A DNA stretch of 21,283 nucleotides from Candidatus Heimdallarchaeota archaeon (GCA_019058275.1 JAHLVW010000048.1:1-21283); one strand, 5' to 3'. Counted from the stretch's first letter, positions 571 to 19,880 are shown. The notes: generated from the letters alone by a model not told the origin. Translations and numbers: made by a program.

Positions 571-647
571 ATTTGAATTCCCATTGATATCTTTTTTTTT
601 TCATTATAAAAATAATTCTAATACTTTAATTCAAGAGAATATAATGT

Positions 648-692
648 AAATGTAGAATTTTTGCACCCACTTCTTCTTGAATGGCTAAAAGT
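648..692 (+). repeat. Array repeat copy 1 (left arm type A, short right arm)
   Basis: AAATGTAGAATTTTTGCACCCACTTCTTCTTGAATGGCTAAAAGT, which matches the start of copies 2, 5 and 7. Confidence 0.85.
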
Positions 693-762
693 AGTATATA
701 ATCATAATACAATTTGTGTTTTTGATAATAAAAAATATAGTCTATTCATACTCTGTCTAATT

Positions 763-2181
763 ATGTTAATTCCAACTGATAAGAATAGAACTGATTGCTT
801 TTATTGTCAGGATATAGTTAAAGAAGAAAAAAACTACCCAATAAGGATTGGAAAATACAGCTCAGAAGGACTGGTAAATCGCTGCCTTTGGCACTCAAAG
901 TTCCAGTGCTCGGAATGTAAAGGATTTTTCCATTTTAGTTTCCTTTATTGGTGTCCGACAGCTAATCAAATAATCTGTGGAAAATGCAATAAACCAACTC
1001 TTTACCCAACAAAATTTTGGAATAAAACATATGCTTACGCTTTTGATTGTAAAATTTGTGAAGAACCTCATTTTGATCTCTTATATGCTGAATATACAGG
1101 TAAACACCCATGGCAAATCAATACAAAGAAATTGTACAAGGAAGAGAATGCATTAATACCTATAGTGCAAATTCGTTTCCCTTGGGAACCAATTTGGAAA
1201 CCAGCAGATTTACGGAAAGGTAAAGAAATTACAGTAGAGGAAGCATTGAAAGCAGACAATATAATTCATTCTTATCGAAAACAATCAGGGAATGTTACAT
1301 TTCATTCAGATGTTTTCGCAGATGAAAAAATAGATCTTTCTGATACAAGAGATAGATGGGAAAAAGCAAGTCATACATTTATGCAGTATTATGATAATAT
1401 CGAAGATAAGGGTGATGGAAATAGAAGATTAATTATTGATCCAGCTCTTTGGAAACAAATGGGGGAAATAAAAGGGTTAAGAATATTAGATGCTGGATGT
1501 GGAAATGGATACTTAGCAAGAGAACTAGCTAGAAAAGGAGCGAAAGTAGTTGGTATCGATTTCTCAAAGAATTTCATCGGATTTTGTAGGAAAAAAGAGA
1601 AAGAAGAATCCTTGGGATGTGAGTTCCACATAGGATCATTAACTAATATGACCATGTTTGAATCAGAGTCATTTGATATGGTTGTGTCAAATATTGTTAT
1701 GGTTGATGTTCAAGATTACAAAGCAACATTTAAAGAGATTAGTAGAATCTTAAAACCAGAAGGGAGATTTATTTGGTCAAATCTTCATCCTGTCTTTGGA
1801 TCTAACAATCAGATTTTCTTCAGACTGCCTTTTGACACACCTAGAAATGAAGAAAAATTATTCATACTAATTGACAGATATTTTGATTCCGGTGGATTAT
1901 TAGTTTCATGGGCGAAGAATAAACCAGTCTGGCAATTTCATCGTACACTACAAGAATATACACAAGCACTTTTTGGAGCTGGTTTTCTGATTAGAGAAAT
2001 CATCGAACCCAAACCTGTTCTTGAAGATCTGAAAGATAATCCTAGATCTTTGGCCTTTGATTCTGATCGAAGACCAATTTTTATTATATATGATTGTGTA
2101 AAAAAAAATGTAGAATCACTGCACCCACTTCTTCTTGAAGGGCTAGAAGTCCAGGTTGGTAATGACATGCTGAAGTGGTAA
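763..2181 (+). CDS. Class I SAM-dependent methyltransferase with an N-terminal Cys/His-rich (putative Zn-binding) domain
   Basis: Motif I ILDAGCGNG, followed by VVGIDFS, FDMVVS and RILKPEG. The N-terminus has CFYC, CSEC, CGKC and CKIC. Likely start is ATG 763 because the tracked start at 661 lies inside repeat 1. The last ~25 codons are read-through into repeat 2. Confidence 0.85.
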   Translation: MLIPTDKNRTDCFYCQDIVKEEKNYPIRIGKYSSEGLVNRCLWHSKFQCSECKGFFHFSFLYWCPTANQIICGKCNKPTLYPTKFWNKTYAYAFDCKICEEPHFDLLYAEYTGKHPWQINTKKLYKEENALIPIVQIRFPWEPIWKPADLRKGKEITVEEALKADNIIHSYRKQSGNVTFHSDVFADEKIDLSDTRDRWEKASHTFMQYYDNIEDKGDGNRRLIIDPALWKQMGEIKGLRILDAGCGNGYLARELARKGAKVVGIDFSKNFIGFCRKKEKEESLGCEFHIGSLTNMTMFESESFDMVVSNIVMVDVQDYKATFKEISRILKPEGRFIWSNLHPVFGSNNQIFFRLPFDTPRNEEKLFILIDRYFDSGGLLVSWAKNKPVWQFHRTLQEYTQALFGAGFLIREIIEPKPVLEDLKDNPRSLAFDSDRRPIFIIYDCVKKNVESLHPLLLEGLEVQVGNDMLKW

Positions 2182-2200
2182 GTACCTGCTGGCTGAGCAT
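2106..2200 (+). repeat. Array repeat copy 2 (type A left arm, full right arm)
   Basis: AAATGTAGAATCACTGCACCCACTTCTTCTTGAAGGGCTAGAAGTCCAGGTTGGTAATGACATGCTGAAGTGGTAAGTACCTGCTGGCTGAGCAT, with internal inverted pair CCACTTC (2125-2131) / GAAGTGG (2172-2178). Confidence 0.95.
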
Positions 2201-3582
2201 TAAAGACTAACAGGATTTTCTAAGGGATATGGATCAGTATTATTTCCACCATCTATTTCGTAGATTACTCCTTCATTCCAAACAATATCAGACCAGTAAT
2301 TACCTCCATTTGTACTAATATCATACCAGTAAATCGCTTGATCATGATAATGTGGTAAACTTGTATTTTCAAAAACTTGGGCAATGCCTGAAGGCATTCC
2401 AGCAAGGTTGTTGTAATAAAAATTATTTTGATAGAATAAATTTAAGTACCCAATATATTCAACATAAATACCATATTCAGTATTATTTGCGAATAGGTTC
2501 CTAGTTAAAATTACAAAGTGATTATCATCGAAGAAAAGTCCATTTTGATTCTTTTGAATATAATTGCTAGAAAGTGTAATATTTATACTATATTTAATTG
2601 TCACTCCAGTATTTACATTCGAACTAAAATTATTGCCTAGCACTGTGACAAGTTCTGATGAATCAATAAATATTCCATCTCGATTATTACAAGAAGTATT
2701 ATTTACAATTAGTAGATTATATACATTGAGAACCCTAAGTCCAGGATTTGTACAATTGTTGATTATATTATTGCTAATTGTTGAATATCCAGAACAACAA
2801 ATCAGTAAACCTGTTGTTATTCTGTTATTATTTACCAAAACTTGATCTGAGAAATCAATTTTGAGGTAGCCACATTTATTGTTAATAATTCTGGCAAGGG
2901 AACAATTACTAATATCAATTTTATTTTGAACAGTATTATTTTCTAGAGAAAGAGCAATTGAATTCTCTATGAGAAGTGTTCCATGAAAGAGCTGGTTGTC
3001 AATTATCTTGCAATTTCCAAATGCAGTTCCTCTCACATAAATTGTATTTCTACTTGCATGAATGGTACAGTTACGAATTAAAAAGAAATTCTTAGAATTT
3101 CTTATGTAGATACCATATGTTTTTGTTGTATTTATGTGTAAATTTTCAATTAAAAACGGATTATTTTCTGAACCATCTCCAGAAAAACCATATAATGATT
3201 TGTAATCCCTATCATTGAGTATAACGATTTCTCCCATATCTCTTCGTTCTTGATTAACTTGCCATAAAGTAAAAGGTATTGCTAATCCTGAACCTAAGAT
3301 TAAAATTACAAAGAAAAACCCGAAAAGAGAGCAGCCCCAAAGATTAACATTCTTATTTTTTGCAAATGAAAACCAGGTAATTAATGGAGTATAGACAATG
3401 GCCATTATACCCAGAGCAAAACAAGTAAAAGATATACCAAAAGATTCTCCAAAAGTATAATTTGGATCACTAATTCCACCTGTAAATTTTAAAATAAAGG
3501 GAACAAGAAATAAAGAGACGAATAAGGAAAACCCAATTAGTAAACTAATTAAAGTTTGTTTTTTCATTTGTGTCTTACTCAT
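2200..3582 (-). CDS. Membrane-anchored NosD/CASH-type right-handed beta-helix protein
   Basis: Three N-terminal TM segments, GDGSENNPFLIENL, Asn-rich beta-helix repeats (NNxxGIxI) and the C-terminal GGNYWSD...DPYPL typical of archaeal NosD-domain proteins. The stop codon abuts repeat 2. Confidence 0.85.
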   Translation of the reverse strand: MSKTQMKKQTLISLLIGFSLFVSLFLVPFILKFTGGISDPNYTFGESFGISFTCFALGIMAIVYTPLITWFSFAKNKNVNLWGCSLFGFFFVILILGSGLAIPFTLWQVNQERRDMGEIVILNDRDYKSLYGFSGDGSENNPFLIENLHINTTKTYGIYIRNSKNFFLIRNCTIHASRNTIYVRGTAFGNCKIIDNQLFHGTLLIENSIALSLENNTVQNKIDISNCSLARIINNKCGYLKIDFSDQVLVNNNRITTGLLICCSGYSTISNNIINNCTNPGLRVLNVYNLLIVNNTSCNNRDGIFIDSSELVTVLGNNFSSNVNTGVTIKYSINITLSSNYIQKNQNGLFFDDNHFVILTRNLFANNTEYGIYVEYIGYLNLFYQNNFYYNNLAGMPSGIAQVFENTSLPHYHDQAIYWYDISTNGGNYWSDIVWNEGVIYEIDGGNNTDPYPLENPVSL

Positions 3583-3675
3583 AAAATCAGTCCTCTATTT
3601 CTATTATTACCTATTAATTACATTTCTAATAAACACTCTCTCTTGATAGTTTAGAAACAGTTAACGGAAAAAATT

Positions 3676-3729
3676 GATGCGACAGGACTCACACTTCTTC
3701 TTTAAGGTCTAGAAGTCCAGTTCGGTAAT
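3676..3729 (+). repeat. Array repeat copy 3 (type B left arm, truncated right arm)
   Basis: GATGCGACAGGACTCACACTTCTTCTTTAAGGTCTAGAAGTCCAGTTCGGTAAT. Confidence 0.95.
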
Positions 3730-3730
3730 C

Positions 3731-3763
3731 AAAGAAAGGATTATATATCGCAAGACCTTAATA
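3731..3763 (+). promoter_or_regulatory. Putative archaeal BRE/TATA promoter shared with 10371-10401
   Basis: Purine-rich AAAGAAAG followed by TATATATCGCAAGACC (3742-3757), identical over 16 bp to 10380-10395, about 40 bp upstream of ATG 3782. Confidence 0.6.
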
Positions 3764-3781
3764 TGTATGAGTTGCACGAGG

Positions 3782-4461
3782 ATGAAAGGTTTAAGCAAGA
3801 TCCAAGTAGGATTTCTAGTACAGATTTTATTTATTTTGCTAATTTTTACTAATTTAATTAATATGTTCAAAATATGATTGATGAAAACGAAATGCCTGAA
3901 GATTATAAAAAACTGGAACTTGTAGCATATAATATTACCTGGAAATTAGCTGATCCTGCTTATTATGCAGATACTTGTAAAAATTACTCAGTTTTTGAAT
4001 TAAATGTTGATTTTAAAATAAATAATTCAAACAACTATATTGTTAATATTACCTTTTGTTGTGGATTGGAATTCTTCCGTGTGAATGTAAGCGCAGACTT
4101 AAGAAATATAAGAACAAAGGTCATAGACTGTAATGTTTTTGCAGCTTTTCAATCAATTACTACAATTCACATACAACAAGGAATCACTCATAGGACAACA
4201 GTTTCATATTTAGGTTTTAGTGATCCAAACTTAACTGAGCTGCCAGATAGCGAATATATTATTTGGTTAACACTTTTTCAATTTGGTGAAACCTATACAG
4301 ATTCAACTCGAACAAAACTAACTATTAGGAATGGTTTACCGTCGTTTGAATATAACTACATTCCAACAATAAACTTACCAATCAAAATTTCCACTATACT
4401 ATGTTCTCTATTAATAGTGGCTTTTGTAATTCAATATAAAAAAACGGAAAAAATGACTTAA
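3782..4461 (+). pseudogene. Exported/membrane-anchored hypothetical protein, paralog of 10414..10956; signal peptide split off by a 1-nt frameshift near 3860
   Basis: ATG 3782 encodes MKGLSKIQVGFLVQILFILLIFTNLIN. Adding one T at ~3860 joins it to YVQN-MIDENE of ORF 3874..4461. There is a C-terminal TM segment and basic tail. Motifs shared with the paralog: NITWKL/NLSWSI, FELNVDFKINN/FRIDADYQINN, IQQGIT/IEQGIT, LPDSEYIIW/LPDGKYSFW. Confidence 0.65.
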
Positions 4462-4597
4462 ATTTACTGTTAATTTCAATTAATTTTTTAAATTATTTTT
4501 TCTCTAGCAGTCTTTTTATTTTGACTTTAGATAAAAAGTAATCTAAGAATTGAATTGTTTTATCCTTTGTAATTTTATGATTAATTACTAATCACCA

Positions 4598-4984
4598 CTA
4601 GTTAATTAATTTAAGTTTCTGAAATTTTTTTAATAATTTAATTGGTGTTTGTGTTCCAGATGTACTTTCTATATTATAAAAAGACAATAGTTTCATAGAC
4701 CAAATGGAAATATATTCTTCATTGGAAGGTAGTTTGACAATTGAACCTTTTTCCTTACCAAAACTATAACTGAAATGATTATGTTCAATTTCTACTGGCC
4801 ATTTAATTCCTGGATGTATTGGTTTGGGTAATATAATTAGACTTTCACTAAAAACTGATGAATTGTTAATTATAATTATACTATTTCTTGTATGCATTTC
4901 ACCATTAATCAAACGTTCAGCTGTTTCAATGAAATAATTTGAATCTTTATTTAGTGCTGATACAAAAATGAAATCTAAACTCAT
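4598..4984 (-). CDS. Hypothetical protein, possibly a 5'-truncated remnant
   Basis: 128-aa ORF with no recognised motif. The frame is open for a further 16 codons upstream (IAASVVVTFTTTSNKN) before a TAA. Confidence 0.35.
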   Translation of the reverse strand: MSLDFIFVSALNKDSNYFIETAERLINGEMHTRNSIIIINNSSVFSESLIILPKPIHPGIKWPVEIEHNHFSYSFGKEKGSIVKLPSNEEYISIWSMKLLSFYNIESTSGTQTPIKLLKKFQKLKLIN

Positions 4985-5089
4985 GTTTTTATTGGAGGTT
5001 GTGGTGAATGTAACTACTACAGAAGCTGCAATTTAAAATTTTACAAACCATCAAGAAGTTGTTGATTAGTATTAATTGAATTTTTTCTT

Positions 5090-5117
5090 AAAAAAAAAGC
5101 TCTTCAAAGAGAAGAGC
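5090..5117 (-). terminator. Hairpin plus oligo-T terminator of the 5122..5835 gene
   Basis: Perfect 7-bp stem GCTCTTC (5099-5105) / GAAGAGC (5111-5117), followed on the minus strand by T9, 4 nt after the stop codon. Confidence 0.7.
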
Positions 5118-5121
5118 CACT

Positions 5122-5835
5122 TTAAATATAAATAGCCATACTATCCATTACATTATACCAAGCAGAATCTGGGTATTCATATGATGTTGCCCAATTATCA
5201 TAAGGATAAGGTCCAAAGAACCCATATGTGAATTCACCATCATCATGCCAATCGGAATATTTTTGAATGCTTCCATAGTTAGAATCATCTATTCTAAACT
5301 TGAGAATACATCCATAATAAAGGCAGATATTCATTTGTTGATTTAGATCAATAATTCCACCACGGATACCAACAAATTTGTCATCGTAATCATTTGGATA
5401 ATCAAATGATTCAGTTTTATAAGCATGGATATGATACCGTCCATTGCCTACAGGATCTGTTGTTGCATCATCAGTTGTGATCCAAAGTCTTTCCCATAAA
5501 TTTCCATAGGGATTGAAAATGTCTACTTGAAAGTTCTTAGTAAAGGATAAATCGTAGAAATAATCAATTTGTGCAATATAAGTTATTCTCCAACCATCAT
5601 TAGACAATAAATATTCTTTAATGACATAATGTATTCTAGTACCATCACCAGTACTTATGTACCCTTCGTCATAATTGTATACCCATATTCGTTTGAGAGT
5701 TGCAGTTATTGTACCTCCTCCACCCACACCAGGGTCTAACTCAATTGGTGGAGCTATTACTATACTAACAGTAGGTATAAGAATTGCTAAGAAAAATATT
5801 GAAAAACCAATCAAATTCATTTTTTTTCTCATCAC
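5122..5835 (-). CDS. Secreted hypothetical protein (signal peptide, PGVGGGG linker, Tyr/Asp/Trp-rich body)
   Basis: 237-aa ORF with a basic then hydrophobic N-terminus and a GAGGTG RBS-like sequence at the start. It is followed by a terminator. Confidence 0.7.
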   Translation of the reverse strand: MMRKKMNLIGFSIFFLAILIPTVSIVIAPPIELDPGVGGGGTITATLKRIWVYNYDEGYISTGDGTRIHYVIKEYLLSNDGWRITYIAQIDYFYDLSFTKNFQVDIFNPYGNLWERLWITTDDATTDPVGNGRYHIHAYKTESFDYPNDYDDKFVGIRGGIIDLNQQMNICLYYGCILKFRIDDSNYGSIQKYSDWHDDGEFTYGFFGPYPYDNWATSYEYPDSAWYNVMDSMAIYI

Positions 5836-6085
5836 ATCACCTCGAATTTTTTTGGTTGATAAAATCAGATTGAAATGATTTAATAAGATTCTTAGGGGAT
5901 TTACCCAAGGATAAGAATTCGAAAAATCAATTTTTACTGGTTCTTAGTTCTATTTTTAGGATTCTTATCGAAGTATAAAAATGTAATGAAAATCAGCTTC
6001 AGAAATTTCACAAAAATTTAATAAATATGGAGAGAATATGTTTGTTAAAAGGAAAAGTTGGGATTTTTGTTCTTGAGGGTATTAA

Positions 6086-7846
6086 ATGTCTTCCAGAATT
6101 GCTATTGGAAAAATTACTGAAAAACAATTATCTAAAGAATTCTTCCAATATTTTAAAAAAATATCTGCATTTTTAGATGCTCAAGTGAAAAAAATTAAAA
6201 TGAAAGTAAAAATACAGAAAGCAGATTCAGATGTTGTAATTCATGACTATGGAAAAGGTTTTGGCGTGATCACCGAAAATGAACAAATAATTTTAGCTAA
6301 TTGGTTGTTTAATTTACCACAACGTGAAAAGGAGATACTATTAAAATTCTTATTAATAAGGGAAGGATTTCGAGTTCATTTTAATAATCAAATTAAATCA
6401 TCACATTTTTACAATGATTTGGTTGAAATCTTGTTAAATATTATTGCAGCTCTTTGGATAATTAATGATCGAGGATATAAGCTTGGAAGTCCACAAGTGA
6501 TAGATATTCGTGGACGGATAGCTTTCGATGATACACAAGTTTTCAATCATAATTATTGGGAATGGGTTTTACTCGATTGGTACAATTATAGATTAAGCAC
6601 AATGGAATTATTTAATAAATTAGTCTCGAGCATTAATTTAGCTATTGAAAAAAAATTTTCTTTGAAGCATCTTGTTGATGATTTTAAATCATGGTTAGAA
6701 AACCAAGTTCAGAAGGTATTTTTACTAGCATTACCATTAAGCTTGAAGAAAAAAAAATTTGATATTATTAAATCAATGATTACTTTAGGTTATGATAAAT
6801 CATCTGCTAAAGAAGTAGGAAAATTAGTTAATCGAAGCTATAATGTGGTTGATATAGCTTTTAAAGAATTATTTGAAAAATATCAAGTCTATTGGCGGGC
6901 AAATATTAATCTTCCATTAATAAGATTATATCCTTATTATTTTAGAATAACTCTTAATGATAAAAAATTCAAATCACAGTTAATCAAGAAGTTTAAAACA
7001 ATTCCTTATCTAAAAGAATTAGATGAAAGCTTTTCTAAAAATAAACATACTCTTGCAGGTTTTTTGGAGAGTCCTCATTATATTCCTGTTAGTTTAGAAG
7101 AATATTTCGAAAAACTCGTTCGAAAAAAAATTGCGGACAATTTCTTTTGTCAGATGATAAGAAGAAAAACACTGTATACCACAATTACAACAGAGAAATT
7201 AAAACCAAATAAAGAAACATATAAGCAAGTGTTTGAAAATCCAAACAAAGAGAAAAATCTGACATTAACTATCCTAGATGATCGTTTTGATATTACAAAA
7301 CCTCCAAAGGAAAAGAAAGCAGTTTTTGATGAGAATGTTCTTAATTTCATTACATTAATTAAGGCTCGCTATTTAGGGAAAGCTCATTATATGTTATCAC
7401 CTCTAACAAAAGTATATGAATTTTGCAAGAAAAATGACATTGATTCTATTGATTCATTGGCTGTTAAATATTTCTTGAATCAATTAGATATTAGATGTAG
7501 AAGATTAGGCTTAATAAATTACTTCCTGAATATTCAGAATATTAGTAATTATGGTGATGCTTTGTTCTTTGAATTACAAGAGGATCCTAAAAGTGATTTG
7601 TCTATGTCTATTATTGAAAAAGCAAAAATCTTTTCTCCTATGATTGTTAAAGAGTTCTTTCAGAGAACAGCTATTTTGTTTCCAAAAGTAAGTATAAATA
7701 ATCCTCTTCGTGAAGTGTTAGAGGAATTTATTCGTAATATTGGTGTTGAATTTTCAACATATCATTTCAGCTATTATAAAGAATATTTACCTGATGTGCT
7801 CTATATCGATTTATATGATTTTGAAGAAAATCGATGGAAATTCTAG
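6086..7846 (+). CDS. Large soluble protein with a central HTH/Lrp-AsnC-like region; putative transcriptional regulator
   Basis: 586 aa. SAKEVGKLVNRSYNVVDIAFKELFEK followed by INLPLIRLYPYYF resembles a wHTH plus Lrp-type linker. It is divergent from the secreted-protein gene. The family assignment is inference. Confidence 0.5.
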   Translation: MSSRIAIGKITEKQLSKEFFQYFKKISAFLDAQVKKIKMKVKIQKADSDVVIHDYGKGFGVITENEQIILANWLFNLPQREKEILLKFLLIREGFRVHFNNQIKSSHFYNDLVEILLNIIAALWIINDRGYKLGSPQVIDIRGRIAFDDTQVFNHNYWEWVLLDWYNYRLSTMELFNKLVSSINLAIEKKFSLKHLVDDFKSWLENQVQKVFLLALPLSLKKKKFDIIKSMITLGYDKSSAKEVGKLVNRSYNVVDIAFKELFEKYQVYWRANINLPLIRLYPYYFRITLNDKKFKSQLIKKFKTIPYLKELDESFSKNKHTLAGFLESPHYIPVSLEEYFEKLVRKKIADNFFCQMIRRKTLYTTITTEKLKPNKETYKQVFENPNKEKNLTLTILDDRFDITKPPKEKKAVFDENVLNFITLIKARYLGKAHYMLSPLTKVYEFCKKNDIDSIDSLAVKYFLNQLDIRCRRLGLINYFLNIQNISNYGDALFFELQEDPKSDLSMSIIEKAKIFSPMIVKEFFQRTAILFPKVSINNPLREVLEEFIRNIGVEFSTYHFSYYKEYLPDVLYIDLYDFEENRWKF

Positions 7847-7965
7847 TTTATACTAAATTAAAACCTGTACAACTTTGAAATCGGGGTACAATTACTTAAA
7901 TTAAAACAAAACGTTAATGATGGAAATCATTAATGAGGATTAACTTGTCGGGTTTTTTGGAAATA

Positions 7966-8472
7966 TCATTCTATTGGTGCACCACAATTTGAACAGAATT
8001 TCTCATTAAAATTCAAAGCTTTACCACATGATTGACAGAATTTCGATTCACTTTTCGATATAGATTCAGCTTGTATTTGAATTGTATCTGTAGCATCCAT
8101 AGATTGTACTACAGTTGATCTGTAAATATAATATCTAATTGTTGAAATAATAGCAGTCATTACATTGAGTCCAATTATTAACCATACCCACCAATCATTA
8201 TAATCCCACTAGCCAGCTGCAAGAATTCCAATAATATAGAATAATAAGATTACGATTAGCAAAAACATCCATGAGCCTAACATAGAAATGAAACGTGGTC
8301 TTCTTCCCCGTCTATCTACAATAAATTTTATTGTTGCTGACAAAGCGAATATTAGTAAAATACCTCCAACAAACCAAATCCACCAATCTGCTATAGTAAA
8401 CCATCCTGCTGCTAGAATTCCTATAAGTCCAAAGAAAAACATCCAAAAAACAAAAATTGACCATGGCATCAA
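7966..8472 (-). pseudogene. Membrane protein with duplicated TM-hairpin motif and C-terminal zinc ribbon, interrupted by an in-frame TAG at 8209-8211
   Basis: ORFs 8209..8472 and 7966..8160 are in the same frame, joined by WDYNDWWVWLIIGLNV. Internal repeat GILAAGWFTIADWWIW versus GILAAG*WDYNDWWVW. C-terminus FCQSCG...FCSNCG. Confidence 0.8.
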
Positions 8473-8582
8473 TAGAAAACTGATTAGTAAACATTAAAAG
8501 AACACTAAATCTGGTCAAAGGGTCATAATCTTTGGTATAATGTTTAAAATCTTCATGTGAAATAGAAAAATAATCAAATAAA

Positions 8583-8668
8583 GATGCACACTCACACTTC
8601 TTCTTTAAGGACTAAGTCTGTTTCAGAAAGGACACGCTTAGGTGGGAAGTATCTGCTGGCTGAGCATC
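8583..8668 (+). repeat. Array repeat copy 4 (B-like left arm, full right arm, diverged centre)
   Basis: GATGCACACTCACACTTCTTCTTTAAGGACTAAGTCTGTTTCAGAAAGGACACGCTTAGGTGGGAAGTATCTGCTGGCTGAGCATC, with terminal GATGC/GCATC inversion. Confidence 0.95.
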
Positions 8669-8786
8669 TCGCCCGAAGAATATATAAAAAATATATTCTA
8701 ATGTCTATATGATAAGGAAATGAAAAGATTATTTGTTTTGAGCATTGAAGCTTTTATTGCAGAAGGATCAAAGAGATGGGATAGAA

Positions 8787-9704
8787 ATGAATACGAAAAC
8801 CCTAAATGAGCGTTTAAATGAAATAAAGAAAAATTTAGATTCAAAGCCTTCAAAATTTGAATCATTCCAAACTAAATTTGGTCAAGAATTTGAAGAAAAT
8901 TTTAAGGATTTGACAGGTTTTGTAACTAACATAGGAATTTTACAATTTTTTATGGAAACAATATCAAATATAATCAAAAACATCACAAGTAAAGCTAAGA
9001 AAGAAGTTCGAGGAAAAATGAGGGAAATCGTAGAACAATCTGAAGAATCACCTGAAAAGATTGATGAAATAGAGAAAAAAATAGATGAAGCCATTAAAGA
9101 TGATGAAAAGAAAGAGAATTCTTTTGCAGAATTTTTCAATGTATTGAAAAAAGAAAATATTTTCGATCGAATAAACTCATACTTCTTCTTAACATTTTAT
9201 ACTTACATAGATTTATACACAATATCACTATATCAACATGTTATCTCTAAAATAGATGTTACAAAAGTTTACGATGTTATTGATGGATTTAAGCCTTCCA
9301 GTAATCCTTCTGATAGATTAAAACAAATTCTCAAGAAGCTTGAATTAAAAGACAAAAAAAATCTTTATGAAAAATTGGATTTAGTAAGGAATTTCGAAAG
9401 TGATTTTATAAATTTCATAAAATTAAGGAATTCAATTGCTCATAGAGAACCATTAACTACATATCAAACGATAAAAAAGAATTTCCCAAAAATAGCAAAA
9501 AAGGCTAAAAAAATAAATGAGAAACAATCAAAAAAAACTGATTTAAAGGAACTTGAGAATCATATTAATAGAGAAAATATGATTCAGAATTTTGAGATAT
9601 TAACTGCTCTCAATTTAATAGCAGTTAACTGTTATATTCTTCTTGCAATGGTTGATTATTTGATAATTGAATTCTTTAAGGAGAATCAACAGCTTGAAAT
9701 ATAG
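8787..9704 (+). CDS. Helical protein with HEPN-like Rx4H motif (putative RNase)
   Basis: FIKLRNSIAHREP in an all-helical, coiled-coil-rich protein. ATG 8787 is preferred over the tracked TTG 8745. The stop TAG is supplied by the TAGAAT at the start of repeat 5. Confidence 0.6.
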   Translation: MNTKTLNERLNEIKKNLDSKPSKFESFQTKFGQEFEENFKDLTGFVTNIGILQFFMETISNIIKNITSKAKKEVRGKMREIVEQSEESPEKIDEIEKKIDEAIKDDEKKENSFAEFFNVLKKENIFDRINSYFFLTFYTYIDLYTISLYQHVISKIDVTKVYDVIDGFKPSSNPSDRLKQILKKLELKDKKNLYEKLDLVRNFESDFINFIKLRNSIAHREPLTTYQTIKKNFPKIAKKAKKINEKQSKKTDLKELENHINRENMIQNFEILTALNLIAVNCYILLAMVDYLIIEFFKENQQLEI

Positions 9705-9767
9705 AATTCTTGCACACACTTCTTCTTTAAGGGCTAGAAGTCCAGTTCGGGAAGGACACGTTGAAGT
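9697..9767 (+). repeat. Array repeat copy 5 (type A)
   Basis: AAATATAGAATTCTTGCACACACTTCTTCTTTAAGGGCTAGAAGTCCAGTTCGGGAAGGACACGTTGAAGT, filling the whole gap between two convergent stop codons. Confidence 0.95.
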
Positions 9768-10027
9768 TACATTTGTTTATAAAATTCATCAATTGGAATT
9801 TTAGCTAACCGAAGAGCTCCTCTTAAGGTTCCTGGTTTGAGTTCTTTATGGAGTGGAATCACAGTGCCAATCTTGCCATCTTTGGATTGTTTTGAAAGAC
9901 GAACATGACTACCTTTGCGTCCAGTTATGGTAAAACCGAATTTATTACATAAAATCTTAATGACTTTCTCACCAGAAATTGGTTTATACTTTGGCAGTCT
10001 TATCAACTTCCTTAGGTGAAATCTCAA
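9767..10027 (-). CDS. hicA: HicA family toxin (mRNA interferase)
   Basis: PISGEKVIKIL...FGF...RKGSHVRL...VIPLHKELKPGTLRGALR. The true start is probably nearer 9997-10006, overlapping the hicB stop. Confidence 0.9.
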   Translation of the reverse strand: MRFHLRKLIRLPKYKPISGEKVIKILCNKFGFTITGRKGSHVRLSKQSKDGKIGTVIPLHKELKPGTLRGALRLAKIPIDEFYKQM

Positions 10028-10220
10028 AAGTAGTAATGATAGGATGACTTTCAGTTGTTAATGGAAATTCTTCGAGATATAACTCAGTTGCTTCAATTAA
10101 ATTTGCCAAAGCTTCTTCAATTGTGTCTCCTTGGCTTACAGTACCAACCTGAGGGCATTCAGCAACATACATATCCTCATCCTTGTAAATAACAGCTGTC
10201 AATGTAGACATCTTGATCAT
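9984..10220 (-). CDS. hicB: HicB family antitoxin (short form, no DNA-binding domain)
   Basis: YVAECPQVGTVSQGDTIEEALANLIEATELYLEE, GAGGT RBS-like sequence upstream, overlaps hicA. Confidence 0.9.
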   Translation of the reverse strand: MIKMSTLTAVIYKDEDMYVAECPQVGTVSQGDTIEEALANLIEATELYLEEFPLTTESHPIITTFEISPKEVDKTAKV

Positions 10221-10296
10221 TCTTTATTACCTCAACTTAATTCTTTAATTTTCTTATAAAAACCAAACTAATTTACTTGAAAAAAAAAGCAGTGAT

Positions 10297-10351
10297 GATG
10301 CAACAGGACTCACACTTCCTCTTTAAGGTCTAGAAGTCCAGTTCGGCAATG
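10297..10351 (+). repeat. Array repeat copy 6 (type B, truncated at the same point as copy 3)
   Basis: GATGCAACAGGACTCACACTTCCTCTTTAAGGTCTAGAAGTCCAGTTCGGCAATG. Confidence 0.95.
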
Positions 10352-10370
10352 TAAGAAAATAATGGAGATA

Positions 10371-10401
10371 AAAGAAAAGTATATATCGCAAGACCATAAT
10401 A
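10371..10401 (+). promoter_or_regulatory. Putative BRE/TATA promoter shared with 3731-3763
   Basis: AAAGAAAAGTATATATCGCAAGACCATAATA, with the TATA-like box ~34 bp upstream of ATG 10414. Confidence 0.6.
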
Positions 10402-10413
10402 TAACAACTTGTT

Positions 10414-10956
10414 ATGGGAAAGATTAAAAGATATTTACTAATGAATTTTCTAATTCCACTACTAATTACAGGGAGTACGTTCTTAGTTATTTCACAAATA
10501 CAAAACACTAAGGATATAACAATACATATAACAAATCTTTCATGGTCGATTATAGAAAATGAGTATATAAATGAAAACAATACAAAATTCAGAATAGATG
10601 CTGATTATCAAATAAATAATAAGAAAGGTGAAAATGTTTATCTCGATTATACATGTATAACAAATTATTTTTTGCTAAATTTTAAATATAAATCGATAAA
10701 TCAATTCCAAGAAATTATTGTAAATGGAAGTAATTATGGAAGTCAGCCATCTTGTAATAAGCTCATTATTGAACAAGGTATTACAAATGGATCAACATTT
10801 ATGTATTGGGAGATAGAACAAAAAAAATATGAAACGCTGCCTGATGGAAAATATTCTTTTTGGATAGTATTATTAGATTATGGGGAATCATATTTTAAAT
10901 CTAAAAGGTTAAGACAAATTATTAGAGATGGATTACTAATATTTGATTTTCCATGA
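10414..10956 (+). CDS. Exported hypothetical protein, paralog of 3782..4461
   Basis: N-terminal signal/TM segment and the shared motifs listed for the paralog. It lacks the paralog's C-terminal anchor. Confidence 0.75.
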   Translation: MGKIKRYLLMNFLIPLLITGSTFLVISQIQNTKDITIHITNLSWSIIENEYINENNTKFRIDADYQINNKKGENVYLDYTCITNYFLLNFKYKSINQFQEIIVNGSNYGSQPSCNKLIIEQGITNGSTFMYWEIEQKKYETLPDGKYSFWIVLLDYGESYFKSKRLRQIIRDGLLIFDFP

Positions 10957-11049
10957 AAAGTTCTTTTTTCCTTCAAGACTATAATAAACCTTAGCAAAGT
11001 AAAAGTGCTTAAGAAACAACTAACAATGAGAATTAACAAAAATCAAAAA

Positions 11050-11127
11050 AAATGTAGAATCACTGCACCCACTTCTTCTTTAAGGTCTAGAAGTCCAGTT
11101 CGGTAATGACACGCTTAGGTGGTAAGT
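11050..11127 (+). repeat. Array repeat copy 7 (type A)
   Basis: AAATGTAGAATCACTGCACCCACTTCTTCTTTAAGGTCTAGAAGTCCAGTTCGGTAATGACACGCTTAGGTGGTAAGT. Confidence 0.95.
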
Positions 11128-11178
11128 GTAAAGAAATAATAAAAGTGATTTCTTAATTGGTCAGTAATTAATAGAGTG

Positions 11179-11523
11179 CTACTGTTCTAGAGTTTGAAGA
11201 AGAGCCAGCAATTTAGGTTTGAGGATAGGAATTTCTATTTTTATTACTTCCCAAGTAAGCTCAAGGTCTACCCCAAAATATTGGTGAATTAAGATATCAC
11301 GCATACCAGCGACCTGTTTCCAAGGTAAATCAGGATTCTCTTCAATAACACTATCAGGAAGGTTCTTCACAGATTCACCAATGATTTCCAATCTTCGAAT
11401 AACAGCATCTTGTAATTGAACAGAAGCAAGAAATTCTTTTTTACCTTTGTTGGATAAATATTTCTCGATTAACTTGAGAGATTCCAACATATGTTGAATG
11501 AAAAATTTTGGTTGCTTAACCAT
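11179..11523 (-). CDS. HEPN (DUF86/HepT-like) RNase toxin of an MNT-HEPN pair
   Basis: DAVIRRLEIIGE and PWKQVAGMRDILIHQYFGVD (Rx4HxY). ATG 11523 overlaps the MNT stop. Confidence 0.92.
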   Translation of the reverse strand: MVKQPKFFIQHMLESLKLIEKYLSNKGKKEFLASVQLQDAVIRRLEIIGESVKNLPDSVIEENPDLPWKQVAGMRDILIHQYFGVDLELTWEVIKIEIPILKPKLLALLQTLEQ

Positions 11524-11815
11524 AAATAACCACTTCTTCACTGAGAATTGAATCTTTAATGAGTGGATGAATGGAGTTGTAAGTCAGAACATCAACGTTA
11601 CAATGAAGAATGTCTTCAAGGGCAAATTTCAAATCAACTAAGTCGAACAAACTTTTCGTTCCTGAAAATTCCACTAAAAGATCAAGATCACTAGTATCAC
11701 TAGCATCACCTCTCACTCGAGAACCGAATACTGATGCTTTTACGACATCATATCTTTGTAATACTGGTAAGATTTTTCCTTTAATGTCTTCTAATGATTG
11801 CTCCATACTAACCAC
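11516..11815 (-). CDS. Minimal nucleotidyltransferase (MNT/MntA-like) antitoxin
   Basis: VFGSRVRGDASDTSDLDLLVEF (GSx10DxD) and NVDVLT. Confidence 0.92.
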   Translation of the reverse strand: MVSMEQSLEDIKGKILPVLQRYDVVKASVFGSRVRGDASDTSDLDLLVEFSGTKSLFDLVDLKFALEDILHCNVDVLTYNSIHPLIKDSILSEEVVIYG

Positions 11816-11900
11816 TTAGCTCTAATCCTTTTATCTATTTATTTACTTTATATGTAATAAATTTGTTTGGAATCAAGTAGAGTAACAAGAAAAATAAAAG

Positions 11901-11962
11901 TTCTAGCACTCAATTCCTCTTTCAGAACTAGAAGTCCAGTTCGGGAAGGACACGCTGAAGTG
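11901..11962 (+). repeat. Array repeat copy 8 (degenerate A-like left arm)
   Basis: TTCTAGCACTCAATTCCTCTTTCAGAACTAGAAGTCCAGTTCGGGAAGGACACGCTGAAGTG; the right half is nearly identical to copy 5. Confidence 0.9.
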
Positions 11963-12065
11963 AAGAATATTAGTTCATTTTACCGAAAAGTAAAAGAGTT
12001 TTGTTGTTTCTTTTTAATATATATTTCTGGGTGGGTGTAAACTGAAAACAGATAACAAAGCTGTT

Positions 12066-12272
12066 TTGATGATTATTTTTATTATAATTGCAGTGGTGTC
12101 AGGTTTTGGTCTTCTTTGGGGAATCACGATATTAGCATGGACAGGAGAATATGGATGGATCGCATTAATTGTGGGATCTGTTGCAGCCATCATTGGAGCG
12201 GTATTTGGTATTTTCAGAATTTTACTTAGAAAAAGAATTACAACTACTAAGAGAGAAAAAGAATCCTTATAG
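12066..12272 (+). CDS. Small two-TM membrane protein with basic tail
   Basis: 68-aa ORF with two hydrophobic helices and RKRITTTKREK; the only ORF between repeats 8 and 9. Confidence 0.6.
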   Translation: MMIIFIIIAVVSGFGLLWGITILAWTGEYGWIALIVGSVAAIIGAVFGIFRILLRKRITTTKREKESL

Positions 12273-12438
12273 AAATAACCTTATCTGATTAGTTGTAGCA
12301 ATAGAGTCTTGTGCTGGAGCAGTACTATCTTATTTCTAAGTGTATAAAGCTCTCATCTTACTTGGATATTTCATATCATAGCACTTCTTCATTAAACTCA
12401 ATATTAATTCTTTATCAAAAAAAATACATAAAATAATT

Positions 12439-12468
12439 GATGCTCAGGACTCACACTTCTCCTTTAAG
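12439..12468 (+). repeat. Array repeat copy 9 (type B left arm plus core only)
   Basis: GATGCTCAGGACTCACACTTCTCCTTTAAG, 13 bp from the SDR stop codon. Confidence 0.9.
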
Positions 12469-12481
12469 AGGAGTAAATTCG

Positions 12482-13318
12482 TCAAGAATCTCTTTTTTTT
12501 CTTCTATAAGCTTTCGAGAAATCAATTTCTTCTGGAAGATGTAAAACTCGACCTTCCATACCACCTGCAATGGTAATGATCTCACCAGAAATGTGACCTG
12601 ATAATTTGTCTGATGCCAATACTGCAATCATATTTGCAATATCTTCTGATTCTGCAATCTTTTTCAAGGGAACAGTTTTCAAAATATGTTTTATACCTTC
12701 TTCATCGTCAAGATATTTTTCTGACATTGGAGAGACAGTCCAGCCGGGACAAACAGCATTAACTCGACCCAATCTTGCCACATTAATAATCTCATTTTTT
12801 AGGCTTCTAGTTAAGCCATAACTTATGGCAGCTTTTGCTGCAGCATAATCAGCATGACCTGCTGCTCCAAAAACAGCAGAAGTAGAACCTACAATAATAA
12901 TACTAGCAGACTCACCATCATATTTTCGAAGTTGTTGTATAAAAGAACGACAACATAGGAAGACACTATCAAGATCCATTGCCATGGTATGGTTCCATCT
13001 CTCCAAAGTCATTTGTTCAATTTCAATGTAGTCTTCCGGCCAGATAGCAGCATTACAAATAAGGATATCAATTCGACCTTTTTTCTTCTCAATTTCCTTA
13101 AATATTTCAAGAACTTGAGATTCACTCAAGAGATCAGCTTTAATACTAAAAGTCTTTTTGCCTAATTCATTAGTTAATTTCTTAGCTCTAATTTCACTAC
13201 TATTGTAATGAACTATAACATCAACACCTTCTGCAGCAAGTACCCGAGCGGTAGCTGCACCAATACCACCTGAAGCACCAGTTATGAGTGCCACTTTTCC
13301 TTCAAGTTCTAAATCCAT
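12482..13318 (-). CDS. Short-chain dehydrogenase/reductase (classical SDR, FabG-like)
   Basis: ITGASGGIG, IDILICNAA, catalytic S...YAAAK, RVNAVCPG. Confidence 0.95.
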   Translation of the reverse strand: MDLELEGKVALITGASGGIGAATARVLAAEGVDVIVHYNSSEIRAKKLTNELGKKTFSIKADLLSESQVLEIFKEIEKKKGRIDILICNAAIWPEDYIEIEQMTLERWNHTMAMDLDSVFLCCRSFIQQLRKYDGESASIIIVGSTSAVFGAAGHADYAAAKAAISYGLTRSLKNEIINVARLGRVNAVCPGWTVSPMSEKYLDDEEGIKHILKTVPLKKIAESEDIANMIAVLASDKLSGHISGEIITIAGGMEGRVLHLPEEIDFSKAYRRKKRDS

Positions 13319-13406
13319 CTCTATCGATTTTTATATGATTTAACCAAGTAATTAGTTTTGGCATTGATTGTTATAGTTAAAGAAATTTAAAAACGATAAA
13401 GTAGTT

Positions 13407-13437
13407 GATGCTCAGGACTCCCACTTCTTCTTTAAGG
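13407..13437 (+). repeat. Array repeat copy 10 (type B left arm plus core only)
   Basis: GATGCTCAGGACTCCCACTTCTTCTTTAAGG, 6 bp from the stop of the next minus-strand gene. Confidence 0.9.
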
Positions 13438-13443
13438 CTTGAA

Positions 13444-13838
13444 TTAAATCTCTAAGAGTTGCTTAGCTAAACGAATTTGATGATTTTGACGATACCAGAA
13501 GTAAAAACAGATAATAAGAAGTAAGTAGAAAGAGAAGGGAAGAAGAGGAAGTAATATCATAGAATCAACAACACCAAGAAAGAAATAAAAAATACTAAAA
13601 AGTAAAAAAGCTATGGAACCTAAAAAACTAAAGTAAGAGCATAAGAAAGAGAGAAAGAACGATCGTAGGTGAGCTGCAATTTCTGAAAGTATCGATGAAT
13701 GAAAAAAATAATTATAAATATAATAGCAGCAACCATAAGGGAAATACCAAGAAACGAGAAACCTCGAAGAGTATCAAACCGTAGAGGATGAGGTATAACA
13801 TTCAAGACTTTTAGAAAATCAAAGAAAATGAATGACAT
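13444..13838 (-). pseudogene. ~130-aa multi-TM membrane protein, frameshifted in a T6 run near 13622-13627
   Basis: ORF 13620..13838 continues, with one extra T, as LGSIAFLLFSIFYFFLGVVDSMILLPLLPFSFYLLLIICFYFWYRQNHQIRLAKQLLEI* to TAA at 13446-13444. Confidence 0.7.
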
Positions 13839-14030
13839 CCTCTAATTAATCCCTATTTATTCAAATACTAATATCATATTTGTAGTCCTATTCAAATAAA
13901 GATTTTCATAAAACAAAGAAAACTCTGAATTAAACACTTAAGATCTTTTAGTAATTAGTATAAAATAAATTTTTAGATATTAACATAATATATTTATTTC
14001 TGGGGATACACCTTTACCTATTGTTAGGGA

Positions 14031-16919: not shown

Positions 16920-16934
16920 GAGAATAAAAAGAAG

Positions 16935-19877: not shown

Positions 19878-19880
19878 GAA

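Follow-up and report, generated by a model that had tools for sequence, protein, structure and literature searches.

The window analysed here, a 21,283-nt stretch of DNA from Candidatus Heimdallarchaeota archaeon (GCA_019058275.1 JAHLVW010000048.1:1-21283), contains ten short repeats that lie between genes and vary at one end only, which raises the question of what these repeats are and what their variable ends signify. The first-pass annotation weighed two origins, attC sites and 3' fragments duplicated from an RNA gene, and proposed a search for an intact parent locus extending past copy 4. That locus exists and identifies the second origin as the correct one: each repeat is a spare copy of the 23S rRNA 3' end and the trailer behind it. 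The genome has a single 23S rRNA gene (contig C98, 98488-102769), and the parent comprises its 3' end and ~50 nt of trailer. The spare copies align to the last bases of the gene and to the trailer, the minus strand of the window is the rRNA sense, and copy 4 continues with TCGCCCGAAGA, which corresponds to about -47 to -57 in the 23S gene (here and below, the last 23S base is 0, trailer positions are positive, and positions in the 23S tail are negative).

In the whole genome (assembly completeness 92.8%), there are 62 spare copies, all on six contigs and co-oriented within each contig. Sixty of these belong to co-oriented cassette arrays that total ~100 kb and start behind the 23S gene; the other two are in a duplicated two-cassette block. 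The copies are the joints of a ~100 kb array of gene cassettes located directly behind the single 23S gene. Array copies are present from C98:103583 onward, the nearest spare copy lies 713 nt behind the gene, and the cassettes (n=55) have a median length of 1.2 kb (range 0.35-8.3 kb). Lying inside this array, the window reads backwards relative to it; its final 141 nt recur without a difference at the end of C98 (in reverse) and at the start of C99, and positions 2104-2222 are identical to C75:1-119, an assembly fork. The copies are short, noncoding and located between genes; their upstream neighbour ORFs are in the same sense in 37 cases and antisense in 24, and the orientations alternate within the window. 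Many of the cassettes are roomy enough for a promoter of their own.

The truncation of the copies on one side only, noticed in the first-pass annotation, is real and extends to the entire set of 62. Whereas 59 copies retain (to +30 or beyond) a 16-nt trailer core, CTTAAAGAAGAAGTG, at +20 to +35, the opposite, 23S-side limit ranges from -114 to +20, a span of 134 nt, and 16 copies lack any 23S base. The limits are sharp: the 30 nt past each limit resemble 23S to the same extent as permuted pairs (33.4% vs 33.0%). A BLAST search with the 23S part alone produced no tail-only fragment beyond the known copies. For copies 1 to 10 of the window, which were delineated by nhmmer and local alignment to the native 23S tail, the limits are +9, -41, -4, -53, -10, -5, -24, -18, +19 and +11, respectively. 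The right ends of the original description thus do vary, from +19 to -53, but copies 2 and 4, which it took to be full, reach -41 and -53 only, compared with -114 for the longest spare copy in the genome. Identity in the core is 94%, against 84-86% elsewhere in the copy, across all copies; in the 30 long copies, which are detectable through their tails independently of the core, it is 92% vs 84% and 86% (p=0.002 and 0.02).

On the other side of the core, the pattern is less uniform than the preserved left ends and adjoining oligo-T first described: the core is kept, but the arms that follow it belong to at least two families. Arm A, GAGTCCTGAGCATCAAT, is similar to the native trailer, and arm B, TGTGCAGTGATTCTAC, is in ~22 copies an almost unchanging 16-mer, with a T-run that follows at a constant distance. 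A run of at least five T comes after the arm in 8 of the 10 copies in the window; genome-wide, the figure is 39 of 61, compared with 31% of control windows (p about 2e-7). In 22 copies, the T-runs are phased at +16/+17 past the core.

Within the window, all copies are on the minus strand. Copy 1 (648-692; nhmmer E=3.5e-5) is a degenerate trailer fragment, +9 to ~+33, with arm B and no T-run. A SAM-dependent methyltransferase (763-2181, plus strand, antisense to rRNA; Pfam Methyltransf_11/31/25) no longer has its native stop and is read through copy 2 for the final 26 codons; the ortholog in the G002 genome ends ...YDCVKA*, and likeness to the orthologs ceases at window position 2103. In copy 2 (2104-2200), the 23S tail starts at -41 and is followed by the trailer, core, arm B and T9; this copy is adjoined by a NosD/beta-helix gene (2200-3582, minus strand, rRNA sense; Pfam NosD, Beta_helix). 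Between copy 3 (3671-3729; tail from -4, core, arm A, T6) and copy 4 lies a multi-gene cassette of 4.85 kb (3730-8578) with ORFs on both strands: 3874-4461(+), 4598-4984(-), 5122-5835(-), 6086-7846(+), 7966-8160(-, zinc ribbon) and 8209-8472(-, membrane). No Pfam or PADLOC match was obtained for these ORFs, and NCBIfam yielded weak domain hits for the 64-aa zinc-ribbon ORF only. Copy 4 (8579-8679), the longest in the window, has a tail from -53 (TCTTCGGGCGAGATGCTCAGCC...), the core and a variant of arm A. The next cargo, a 319-aa ORF with no assigned function (8745-9704, plus strand, antisense), has its stop 7 nt within the arm of copy 5 (9698-9767), which has a tail from about -10 to -16, the core and an arm B variant with no T-run.

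A hicB-hicA toxin-antitoxin module (9767-10220, minus strand, rRNA sense; Pfam HicA_toxin, HicB-like) separates copy 5 from copy 6 (10296-10351; tail from -5, core, arm A, T9), the limit of which equals that of copy 3 because the neighbouring cassette shares common descent. The 180-aa ORF of that cassette (10414-10956, plus strand) is a distant paralog (26%, E=4e-19) of ORF 3874-4461, and the motif TATATATCGCAAGACCWTAATAT is found upstream of both. Copy 7 (11048-11127; tail from -24, core, arm B, T8) is followed by a second toxin-antitoxin pair, an MNT nucleotidyltransferase with HepT (HEPN) (11179-11815, minus strand, rRNA sense; Pfam HepT-like, Polbeta, NTP_transf_2). In copy 8 (11896-11962), the tail starts at -18, the core has diverged (AAAGAGGAATTG) and the arm, which is atypical, is accompanied by T5. 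It is followed by a 68-aa membrane ORF on the plus strand (12066-12272, antisense), a paralog of which lies at C35:2383-2662, and by copy 9 (12433-12468), which is limited to the core (from +19), arm A and T8. The last cargo flanked by copies on both sides is a short-chain dehydrogenase (SDR; 12482-13318, minus strand, rRNA sense; Pfam adh_short). Beyond copy 10 (13406-13443; trailer from +11, core, arm A), the remainder of the window (13444-21283) is a large, repeat-free block of the array that contains a decayed copy of a 132-aa ORF (13444-13922) and, on the plus strand, two FtsX-type permeases with an ABC ATPase.

The first-pass annotation also placed minus-strand stop codons at the truncation point. 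For four genes, stops do lie near the copy: the NosD TAA stop is 0 nt from copy 2, with a 1-nt overlap with the first base of the copy, the hicA stop is 0-6 nt from copy 5, the SDR stop 13 nt from copy 9, and the HepT stop 51 nt from copy 7. The fifth case, a membrane protein ending 6 bp away, dissolves, as no minus-strand ORF of at least 25 aa ends at that point and ORF 12066-12272 is on the plus strand. Tabulated genome-wide, as had been proposed, the stop-to-copy gaps of the 37 same-sense upstream ORFs have a median of 62 nt (14 of the 37 are at most 31 nt), which is within normal gene spacing in this genome (medians of 33 nt for convergent and 82 nt for co-directional pairs); the asymmetry of the truncation stands, but the stop-to-copy distances are ordinary. 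Cargo also adjoins the arm side of the copies, where the methyltransferase lost its own stop.

What is actually exchanged becomes apparent from the comparison with other contigs and species: the shared cassette extends from ~+20 of one copy to ~+35 of the next, and the exchange between arrays and species takes place in the 16-nt core. The SDR cassette recurs whole in the G001 and G007 genomes (96%, 90% and 88% identity) with tails of other lengths; likeness begins at ~+22/+24 (the 96% copy is at G001:C133), and the upstream tails start from about -50, about -40, +5 and +11. The cassette at C80:6371-6830 shares with G001:C141 the stretch from +20 to +35 and the same diverged tail limit, -53. 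Both cassettes have other neighbours in G001 and G007, with the breaks at +20 to +35. In the pair of C98:128.2-128.8 kb and C99, the cargo and tail limit are equal and divergence sets in at +36, with arm B in one and arm A in the other. Five paralogs of one downstream cassette are preceded by tails starting at +20, -59, -13, -44 and +9. In five congeners, the native trailers agree through ...AAAGAAGAAG, after which differing arms follow. The variable 23S tail goes with the upstream cargo, and the core, arm and T-run go with the downstream cargo. Most of these exchange boundaries are bracketed only, and where a tail or arm is shared, the crossover could have occurred anywhere in the shared stretch.

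The one-sided shortening of the copies follows from the place of exchange, the 16-base core at the opposite side. That cargo was joined at variable positions, as initially suggested, describes the copies correctly, but each limit is inherited as a trait of the upstream cassette and is kept in pairs that are 85-96% identical. A paralog pair at 76% identity has unequal limits, +17 and -40, and therefore the tail limit is not fixed over long times.

The copies join small exchangeable gene blocks, and we consider it probable that these are swapped at the trailer core, with the tail as a passenger. Read in the rRNA sense, such a cassette starts with the 3' part of the core (from ~+20, TTAAAGAAGAAGTG) followed by an arm (A, B or other) and, usually, a T-run; continues with a cargo of one to several genes, which may be on either strand; and ends with an optional stretch of 23S tail and proximal trailer, of a length fixed for each cassette, before the next core. 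The core and arm would be required at each joint, as the first-pass annotation proposed, which fits the retention of the core, its higher conservation and the absence of tail-only fragments. The 23S tail would be carried along as a passenger where the upstream cassette ends; it could have any length down to zero, and would often cease where the cargo gene ceases. Deletions in a compact genome may have shortened the tails, or the cassettes may have arisen with differing tails. The core and arm might be bound by a recombinase encoded elsewhere or by another enzyme, the T-run of the arm might end transcription coming from the 23S gene or upstream cargo, and ordinary homologous exchange between the longer copies is likely to be superimposed.

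Homologous recombination could also suffice on its own, in which case the copies would be portable homology used by the general machinery, with no dedicated site or enzyme, and the core would look special merely as the part still common to all copies. No tyrosine or serine recombinase genes (PF00589, PF00239) were found on C35, C38, C75, C80, C99 or the array part of C98, nor next to the 23S gene, where the preceding 14 kb are free of PF00589 matches; these are confined to C55, C5, C9, C20, C36 and C78. Cas1 and TnpB are missing from the array contigs and from the vicinity of the 23S gene, and IS200-type (Y1) and IS110-type transposases from the whole assembly. The lack of a recombinase in or near the arrays, the assembly forks at the repeats and the location of all mapped boundaries at edges of shared homology speak for this mechanism. 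In addition, the tails are mosaic: in a four-gamete test, nearly all pairs of variable sites in the tails show all four combinations (for instance, -4/+5: 10/13/4/15), so that exchange or gene conversion occurs inside the tails too, which fits plain homologous recombination. However, 16 copies that have only ~15-35 nt in common with any partner are still at cassette joints, the core is more conserved than the tail even in long copies detectable without it, and the nearly invariant 16-mer of arm B with its T-run at a fixed distance recurs in ~22 copies. The origin of new, tightly trimmed cassettes would also be left unexplained. On balance, homologous recombination as the sole mechanism seems rather unlikely, if a serious possibility.

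Insertion of a MITE- or REP-like repeat into existing intergenic regions, followed by truncation, would produce short noncoding repeats found exclusively between genes, but is very improbable considering that the sequence is that of an rRNA gene end, that the copies are co-oriented on each contig and restricted to arrays contiguous with the 23S gene, and that whole cassettes, with their tail limits, are common to genomes with different neighbours. It is harder still to credit retro-copying of the pre-rRNA 3' end, with reverse transcription from a U-tail, early stops and insertion between genes, or the RNA or single-stranded DNA intermediate envisaged in the first-pass annotation. The polarity fits, with variable 5' limits, a kept 3' part and a T-run next to it, but there is no reverse transcriptase (RVT_1, PF00078) match and no Y1 transposase in the whole assembly (92.8% complete), the copies carry C at +5 (69% of copies) and at -19 (28 of 30) where the native gene has A, several unrelated arms occur among them, the tail limits are inherited with the cargo in cassettes exchanged at the core, and the copies, rather than being dispersed, are grouped behind the 23S gene in one orientation. 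Finally, a classical integron, with the repeats as attC sites recombined by an IntI integrase, would account for toxin-antitoxin cargo in a cassette array that shows no local promoter logic, and integrons are reported in Asgard genomes (PMC9668308), but this reading is refuted by the lack of IntI or any other tyrosine recombinase on the array contigs, the lack of an attC hairpin (z-scores of -0.45 to +0.93 when six copies were folded as single-stranded DNA, including both strands for two), the absence of GTTRRRY from the copies (all 29 window matches lie outside them), the cargo on both strands (37 vs 24) and the identity of the repeat with the 23S tail.

The array has features in common with sedentary chromosomal integrons and integrase-less attC clusters (CALINs), archaeal ones included (Ghaly et al. 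2022, PMC9668308). In both cases, a long array consists of small, mostly single-gene cassettes in which toxin-antitoxin pairs and unknown genes abound, a recurring site bounds the cassettes such that each joint is a hybrid of the ends of two cassettes, and cassettes are re-assorted between genomes with breakpoints in the site (+20 to +35 here). The differences are that here IntI, the attC hairpin and GTTRRRY are absent, the cargo is on both strands, whereas integron ORFs are co-oriented with the site just 3', many cassettes could accommodate their own promoter, and the site comes from an rRNA gene.

The part of the trailer that is kept across copies corresponds to the 3' strand of a predicted 23S processing stem, the leader-trailer helix. 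In RNAcofold models, trailer positions +5 to +39 and +43 to +50 are paired with the 23S leader, and the longest predicted helix, 11 bp, is formed by GAAGAAGTGTG (+25 to +35); the predicted stem did not accommodate a canonical bulge-helix-bulge motif. Archaeal rRNA processing stems are leader-trailer helices that are cut by the splicing endonuclease (PMC7038931, PMC10351888); these studies describe one stem per rRNA gene, for RNA maturation, and a literature search found no paper on dozens of spare 23S-trailer 3' strands as DNA joints, nor one describing 23S-tail cassette arrays.

The closest parallels at RNA genes are tandem or additive genomic islands located at tRNA and tmRNA gene 3' ends, namely the tycheposon islands of Prochlorococcus (bioRxiv 10.1101/2020.12.28.424599) and, in 'Ca. 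Methylopumilus', an additive island in which the final 20 bp of tRNA-Lys recur (PMC10872708). As in the array described here, co-oriented partial 3' ends of an RNA gene lie between blocks of accessory genes, the array begins at the intact RNA gene, and newer blocks are thought to displace older ones outward. Whereas at least some elements of such islands have an integrase next to the att site, the ~55 cassettes (median 1.2 kb) include none, the target is the 23S trailer, a processing stem, rather than a tRNA, and the part taken from the gene may have any length or be missing. In islands of this type, the crossover is inside the RNA gene, to which the element provides a new 3' end; here, exchange occurs at +20 to +36 of the trailer, past the Rfam 23S end, and therefore an element need not restore the 23S gene. 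The hicB-hicA module of the window is also present (81%) in G002:C13, where it is flanked by tRNA 3'-end fragments.

The source genome (4.12 Mb in 118 contigs, 32.5% GC, 92.8% complete) contains 63 matches to the repeat, spread over six contigs, and an intact parent locus extending past the repeat, which the first-pass annotation had called for, is present: it is the 3' end and trailer of the sole 23S rRNA gene (contig C98, 98488-102769). This gene ends in ...GTCTTCGGGCGAGATGCTCAGCCAGCAGGTACTTAACACCTAAGCGTGTCATTAC and continues into the trailer as CGAAATGGACTTCTAGACCTTAAAGAAGAAGTGTGAGTCCGAGCATCAAT; the copies in the window are the reverse complement of this sequence, so that the minus strand of the window is the rRNA sense. 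Positions hereafter are relative to the last 23S base (0) in the rRNA sense, negative in the 23S tail and positive in the trailer. In these terms, the 23S side is what was originally described as the right end of the repeat, and the "arm plus core" belongs to the trailer, where the core is a 16-nt stretch (+20 to +35) followed by an arm and usually a T-run. RNAcofold pairs trailer positions +5 to +50 with the 23S leader, the longest helix being formed from the core GAAGAAGTGTG (+25 to +35); thus, what the copies contain is the 3' strand of the predicted 23S processing stem. The internal loops of this stem, at +10/11, +18/19 and +23/24, include no canonical bulge-helix-bulge motif. The 23S gene is 4282 nt long compared with 2987 model positions, an excess of about 1.3 kb made up of introns or expansion segments. 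Upstream of it, an aldehyde:ferredoxin oxidoreductase gene (C98, 92349-93980) is split into two adjoining ORFs, one with AFOR_N and the start of AFOR_C and the other with the remaining AFOR_C, for which a frameshift, a pseudogene or a recoding site are possible explanations.

The final 141 nt of the window (21143-21283) exactly match the end of C98 (reverse) and the start of contig C99, which places the window inside an array that starts behind the 23S gene. Window positions 2104-2222 are identical to C75:1-119 (reverse). Both overlaps are assembly-graph forks at k-mer length, the latter exactly at a repeat, and point to a duplicated joint or to cassette orders that vary within the sampled population. 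The array spans about 100 kb (2-3% of the genome) and comprises about 55 small cassettes, that is, cargo gene blocks between two copies, none of which encodes an integrase. The repeats break assemblies: six contigs of this genome end in or near them.

A repeat finder and iterated nhmmer located ten copies in the window, all in one orientation, between 648 and 13443. No RNA gene was detected in the window by an Rfam scan (E up to 1), the copies being shorter than the LSU model can detect, and ARAGORN found no tRNA or tmRNA. The cargo blocks between the copies encode a methyltransferase, a NosD-like protein, a 4.85-kb block of unknown genes, a 319-aa ORF, hicAB, a 180-aa ORF, MNT-HepT, a 68-aa membrane ORF and a short-chain dehydrogenase (SDR). 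For the window ORFs without known function, NCBIfam gave only weak zinc-ribbon domain matches (64-aa ORF, 7966-8160) and PADLOC none. Cargo strands in window 600-13500 strictly alternate between sense and antisense, such that the copies are flanked by convergent and divergent gene pairs in turn. In the genome as a whole, the four cargo arrangements are roughly equal in frequency (16, 15, 9 and 20). Two plus-strand ORFs that are only distantly related (26% identity) each have a 23-nt motif, TATATATCGCAAGACCWTAATAT, ahead of them, at 3744-3766 and 10382-10404, and a third copy of the motif is at C73:4959; it is conserved far above the two proteins and may be a promoter or operator of this ORF family. 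Copies 3 and 6 share the same tail limit because the cassettes flanking them, with these 26% identical proteins and the motif in both, are paralogous. The two-cassette block at window 12452-13922 (a 132-aa ORF, a core copy, the SDR gene and a second core copy) has an 81% identical duplicate at C98:55169-56654. This duplicate is inverted and lies outside the array, 42 kb upstream of the 23S gene; its 132-aa ORF is intact, whereas five stops interrupt the one in the window.

All 62 spare copies, i.e., partial duplicates of the 23S 3' end and trailer, were aligned to the native tail. On the 23S side, their limits vary from -114 to +20, with 16 copies lacking 23S bases altogether, whereas on the opposite side 59 of the 62 reach +30 or further. 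Likeness to the native trailer stops either at +33/+35, in copies with arm B (TGTGCAGTGATTCTAC) and a T-run mostly immediately after it, or at +46 to +59, in copies with the native-trailer-like arm A; the arms of about 19 copies belong to neither type. When only the 23S part was used as the BLAST query, no core-less fragment was returned, and in the 30 nt past each limit the identity to the native gene is 33.4%, compared with 33.0% in permuted pairs; therefore, the truncation is real and sharp. The same permutation comparison of flanks rules out gradual decay in place of truncation for the set as a whole; copy 9, at the SDR gene, may have a locally diverged limit at +9. Across all copies, the core is conserved at 94%, compared with 84% for the tail and 86% for the proximal trailer, and in the 30 long copies, which are detectable by their tails independently of the core, the values are 91.7% for the core versus 84.4% (p=0.002) and 86.0% (p=0.02), respectively. 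The one-sided truncation shows the 23S-derived part to be dispensable and reduces the testable site to about 35 nt, namely, the 16-nt core and the arm, which offers a substrate with which to look for the enzyme and a rule to delimit cassettes in other Asgard genomes.

The first-pass annotation had placed minus-strand stop codons at the truncation point. Such stops indeed lie 0 nt (NosD), 0-6 nt (hicA), 13 nt (SDR) and 51 nt (HepT) from it, but no minus-strand ORF ends at the 6 bp given for a membrane protein. Genome-wide, the median gap is 62 nt for the 37 copies with a same-sense upstream ORF (31 nt or less in 14) and 105 nt for the 24 with an antisense one, the shortest gaps to a same-sense stop being found in the convergent arrangement (median 20 nt; 31 nt or less in 11 of 16). 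The genome's own genes are spaced similarly (convergent, 33 nt; co-directional, 82 nt; divergent, 199 nt), so the repeat is placed where any next feature would be. Hence, of the two outcomes that were to count against the original proposal, symmetric truncation is not seen, but the stop-to-repeat distances are ordinary. The arm side, too, is directly adjoined by cargo: the methyltransferase gene lacks its native stop and reads 26 codons through copy 2 on the reverse strand. Its ortholog in a related genome (G002) ends in ...YDCVKA*, whereas the window gene continues (2098-2181) into an A-run, giving a repeat-made C-terminal extension unless, possibly, the A-run has a length error. The repeats can thus produce false ORF extensions.

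Recurrent cassettes delineate the unit of exchange. The SDR cassette recurs in two related genomes (96% identity, G001:C133; 90%, G007:C215; 88%, G001:C141), with likeness beginning at about +22/+24 of the upstream copy, and the preceding tails are unlike: a long 23S tail from about -50, others from about -40 and +5, and +11 in the window. The cassette at C80:6371-6830 has a counterpart in G001:C141, the likeness beginning at +20 of one copy, ending at +35 of the following copy and including the same diverged tail with its start at -53; the downstream neighbor of this cassette is the SDR cassette in G001 and a different one in the source genome. Between C98:128.2-128.8 kb and C99:4.4-5.0 kb (89%), cargo, tail limit and core are alike, and from +36 arm B faces arm A. 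Five paralogs of one downstream cassette are preceded by tails with limits at +20, -59, -13, -44 and +9, and the native trailers of five congeners do not differ up to ...AAAGAAGAAG, beyond which the arms diverge. Taken together, these sequence comparisons assign the tail to the cassette upstream of it, assign the core, arm and T-run to the downstream cassette, and place the exchange point within +20 to +36.

The spare copies are a separate lineage. In 28 of 30, position -19 is C, as in the native genes of four congeners, where that of the source genome has A; at +5, 69% have C and all five native trailers A. Therefore, the spare copies are neither recent duplicates nor transcripts of the native end. 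Tail limits are kept in cassette pairs that are 85-96% identical and unlike in one pair at 76%; the length differences could stem from deletion after capture or from different lengths at birth. No association was found between tail length or limit and the arm type of the same cassette, cargo orientation or the stop gap. What is new here is the tally and sharpness of the truncation, the tail and arm assignment, the +20 to +36 exchange window, the spare-copy lineage with its mosaic tails, and the ordinary stop-to-repeat gaps.

It is probable that exchange depends on a site in the trailer core, the structural reading being included in this estimate. A defined site served by an enzyme encoded elsewhere is favored by the extra-conserved short core at every joint, by the conserved arm families and phased T-run (39 of 61 copies versus 31% of controls), and by joints whose partners share little past about 15-35 nt. 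Homologous recombination alone is a less likely, although not negligible, account of cassette exchange. Against a dedicated site, all four combinations occur at nearly every pair of variable tail positions, and therefore homologous exchange or gene conversion between longer copies also acts and may even be the whole story. An RNA intermediate is unlikely. The attC reading was rejected, as the copies show neither attC-like folding nor GTTRRRY, as was a TnpB guide, the only tail or core matches outside the arrays being a 17-nt one on contig C55 and the block at C98:55-56 kb. No tyrosine or serine recombinase, TnpB or Cas1 was found on the array contigs or at the array edges, including in a Pfam scan of ORFs from both array edges on contig C80 and from the 14 kb preceding the 23S gene, and no RVT_1 reverse transcriptase or IS200-type or IS110-type transposase anywhere in the assembly. 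Six tyrosine and two serine recombinases, which are candidates for the enzyme, are encoded on contigs C55, C5, C9, C20, C36, C78, C117 and C11.

The known gene-collecting arrays are anchored at integron attI sites or at tRNA genes. The present layout works like those of integrons (PMC9668308) and of tRNA-anchored additive islands or tycheposon arrays (PMC10872708; bioRxiv 10.1101/2020.12.28.424599), but the array fails the tests that define either system, and its anchor, unlike attI or a tRNA gene, is the trailer of an rRNA gene. Full-text searches, which covered the paper on closed Heimdallarchaeum genomes, turned up no description of cassette arrays behind rRNA genes. Such an anchor is of a new kind, and it occurs in archaea closely related to eukaryotes. 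We tentatively raise the possibility of an Asgard gene-capture platform that would work like an integron with other parts: the outer helix of the 23S processing stem (TTAAAGAAGAAGTG) would serve as the landing site, and cassettes carrying only the core and a short terminator-bearing arm would be inserted and excised, with rRNA maturation unharmed, by an unrecognized enzyme encoded elsewhere or a repurposed host enzyme. The same or sister machinery might serve tRNA-fragment arrays, because one hicAB module occurs in both kinds of array. At G002:C13:175550-180789, a tRNA 3'-end fragment (TGGTGGGCGATCCCGGATTTGAACCG...) recurs in at least five co-oriented copies, spaced by 0.6-3 kb up to the contig end, and two of them enclose a hicAB module 81% identical to that of the window. 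In both array types the module ends exactly at the stop codon; this would suggest joining at the stop codon but was discounted, given that, at 81% identity, the fading of likeness in DNA under no constraint explains it as well. A similar tRNA 3'-end fragment is present in the source genome at C19:17905.
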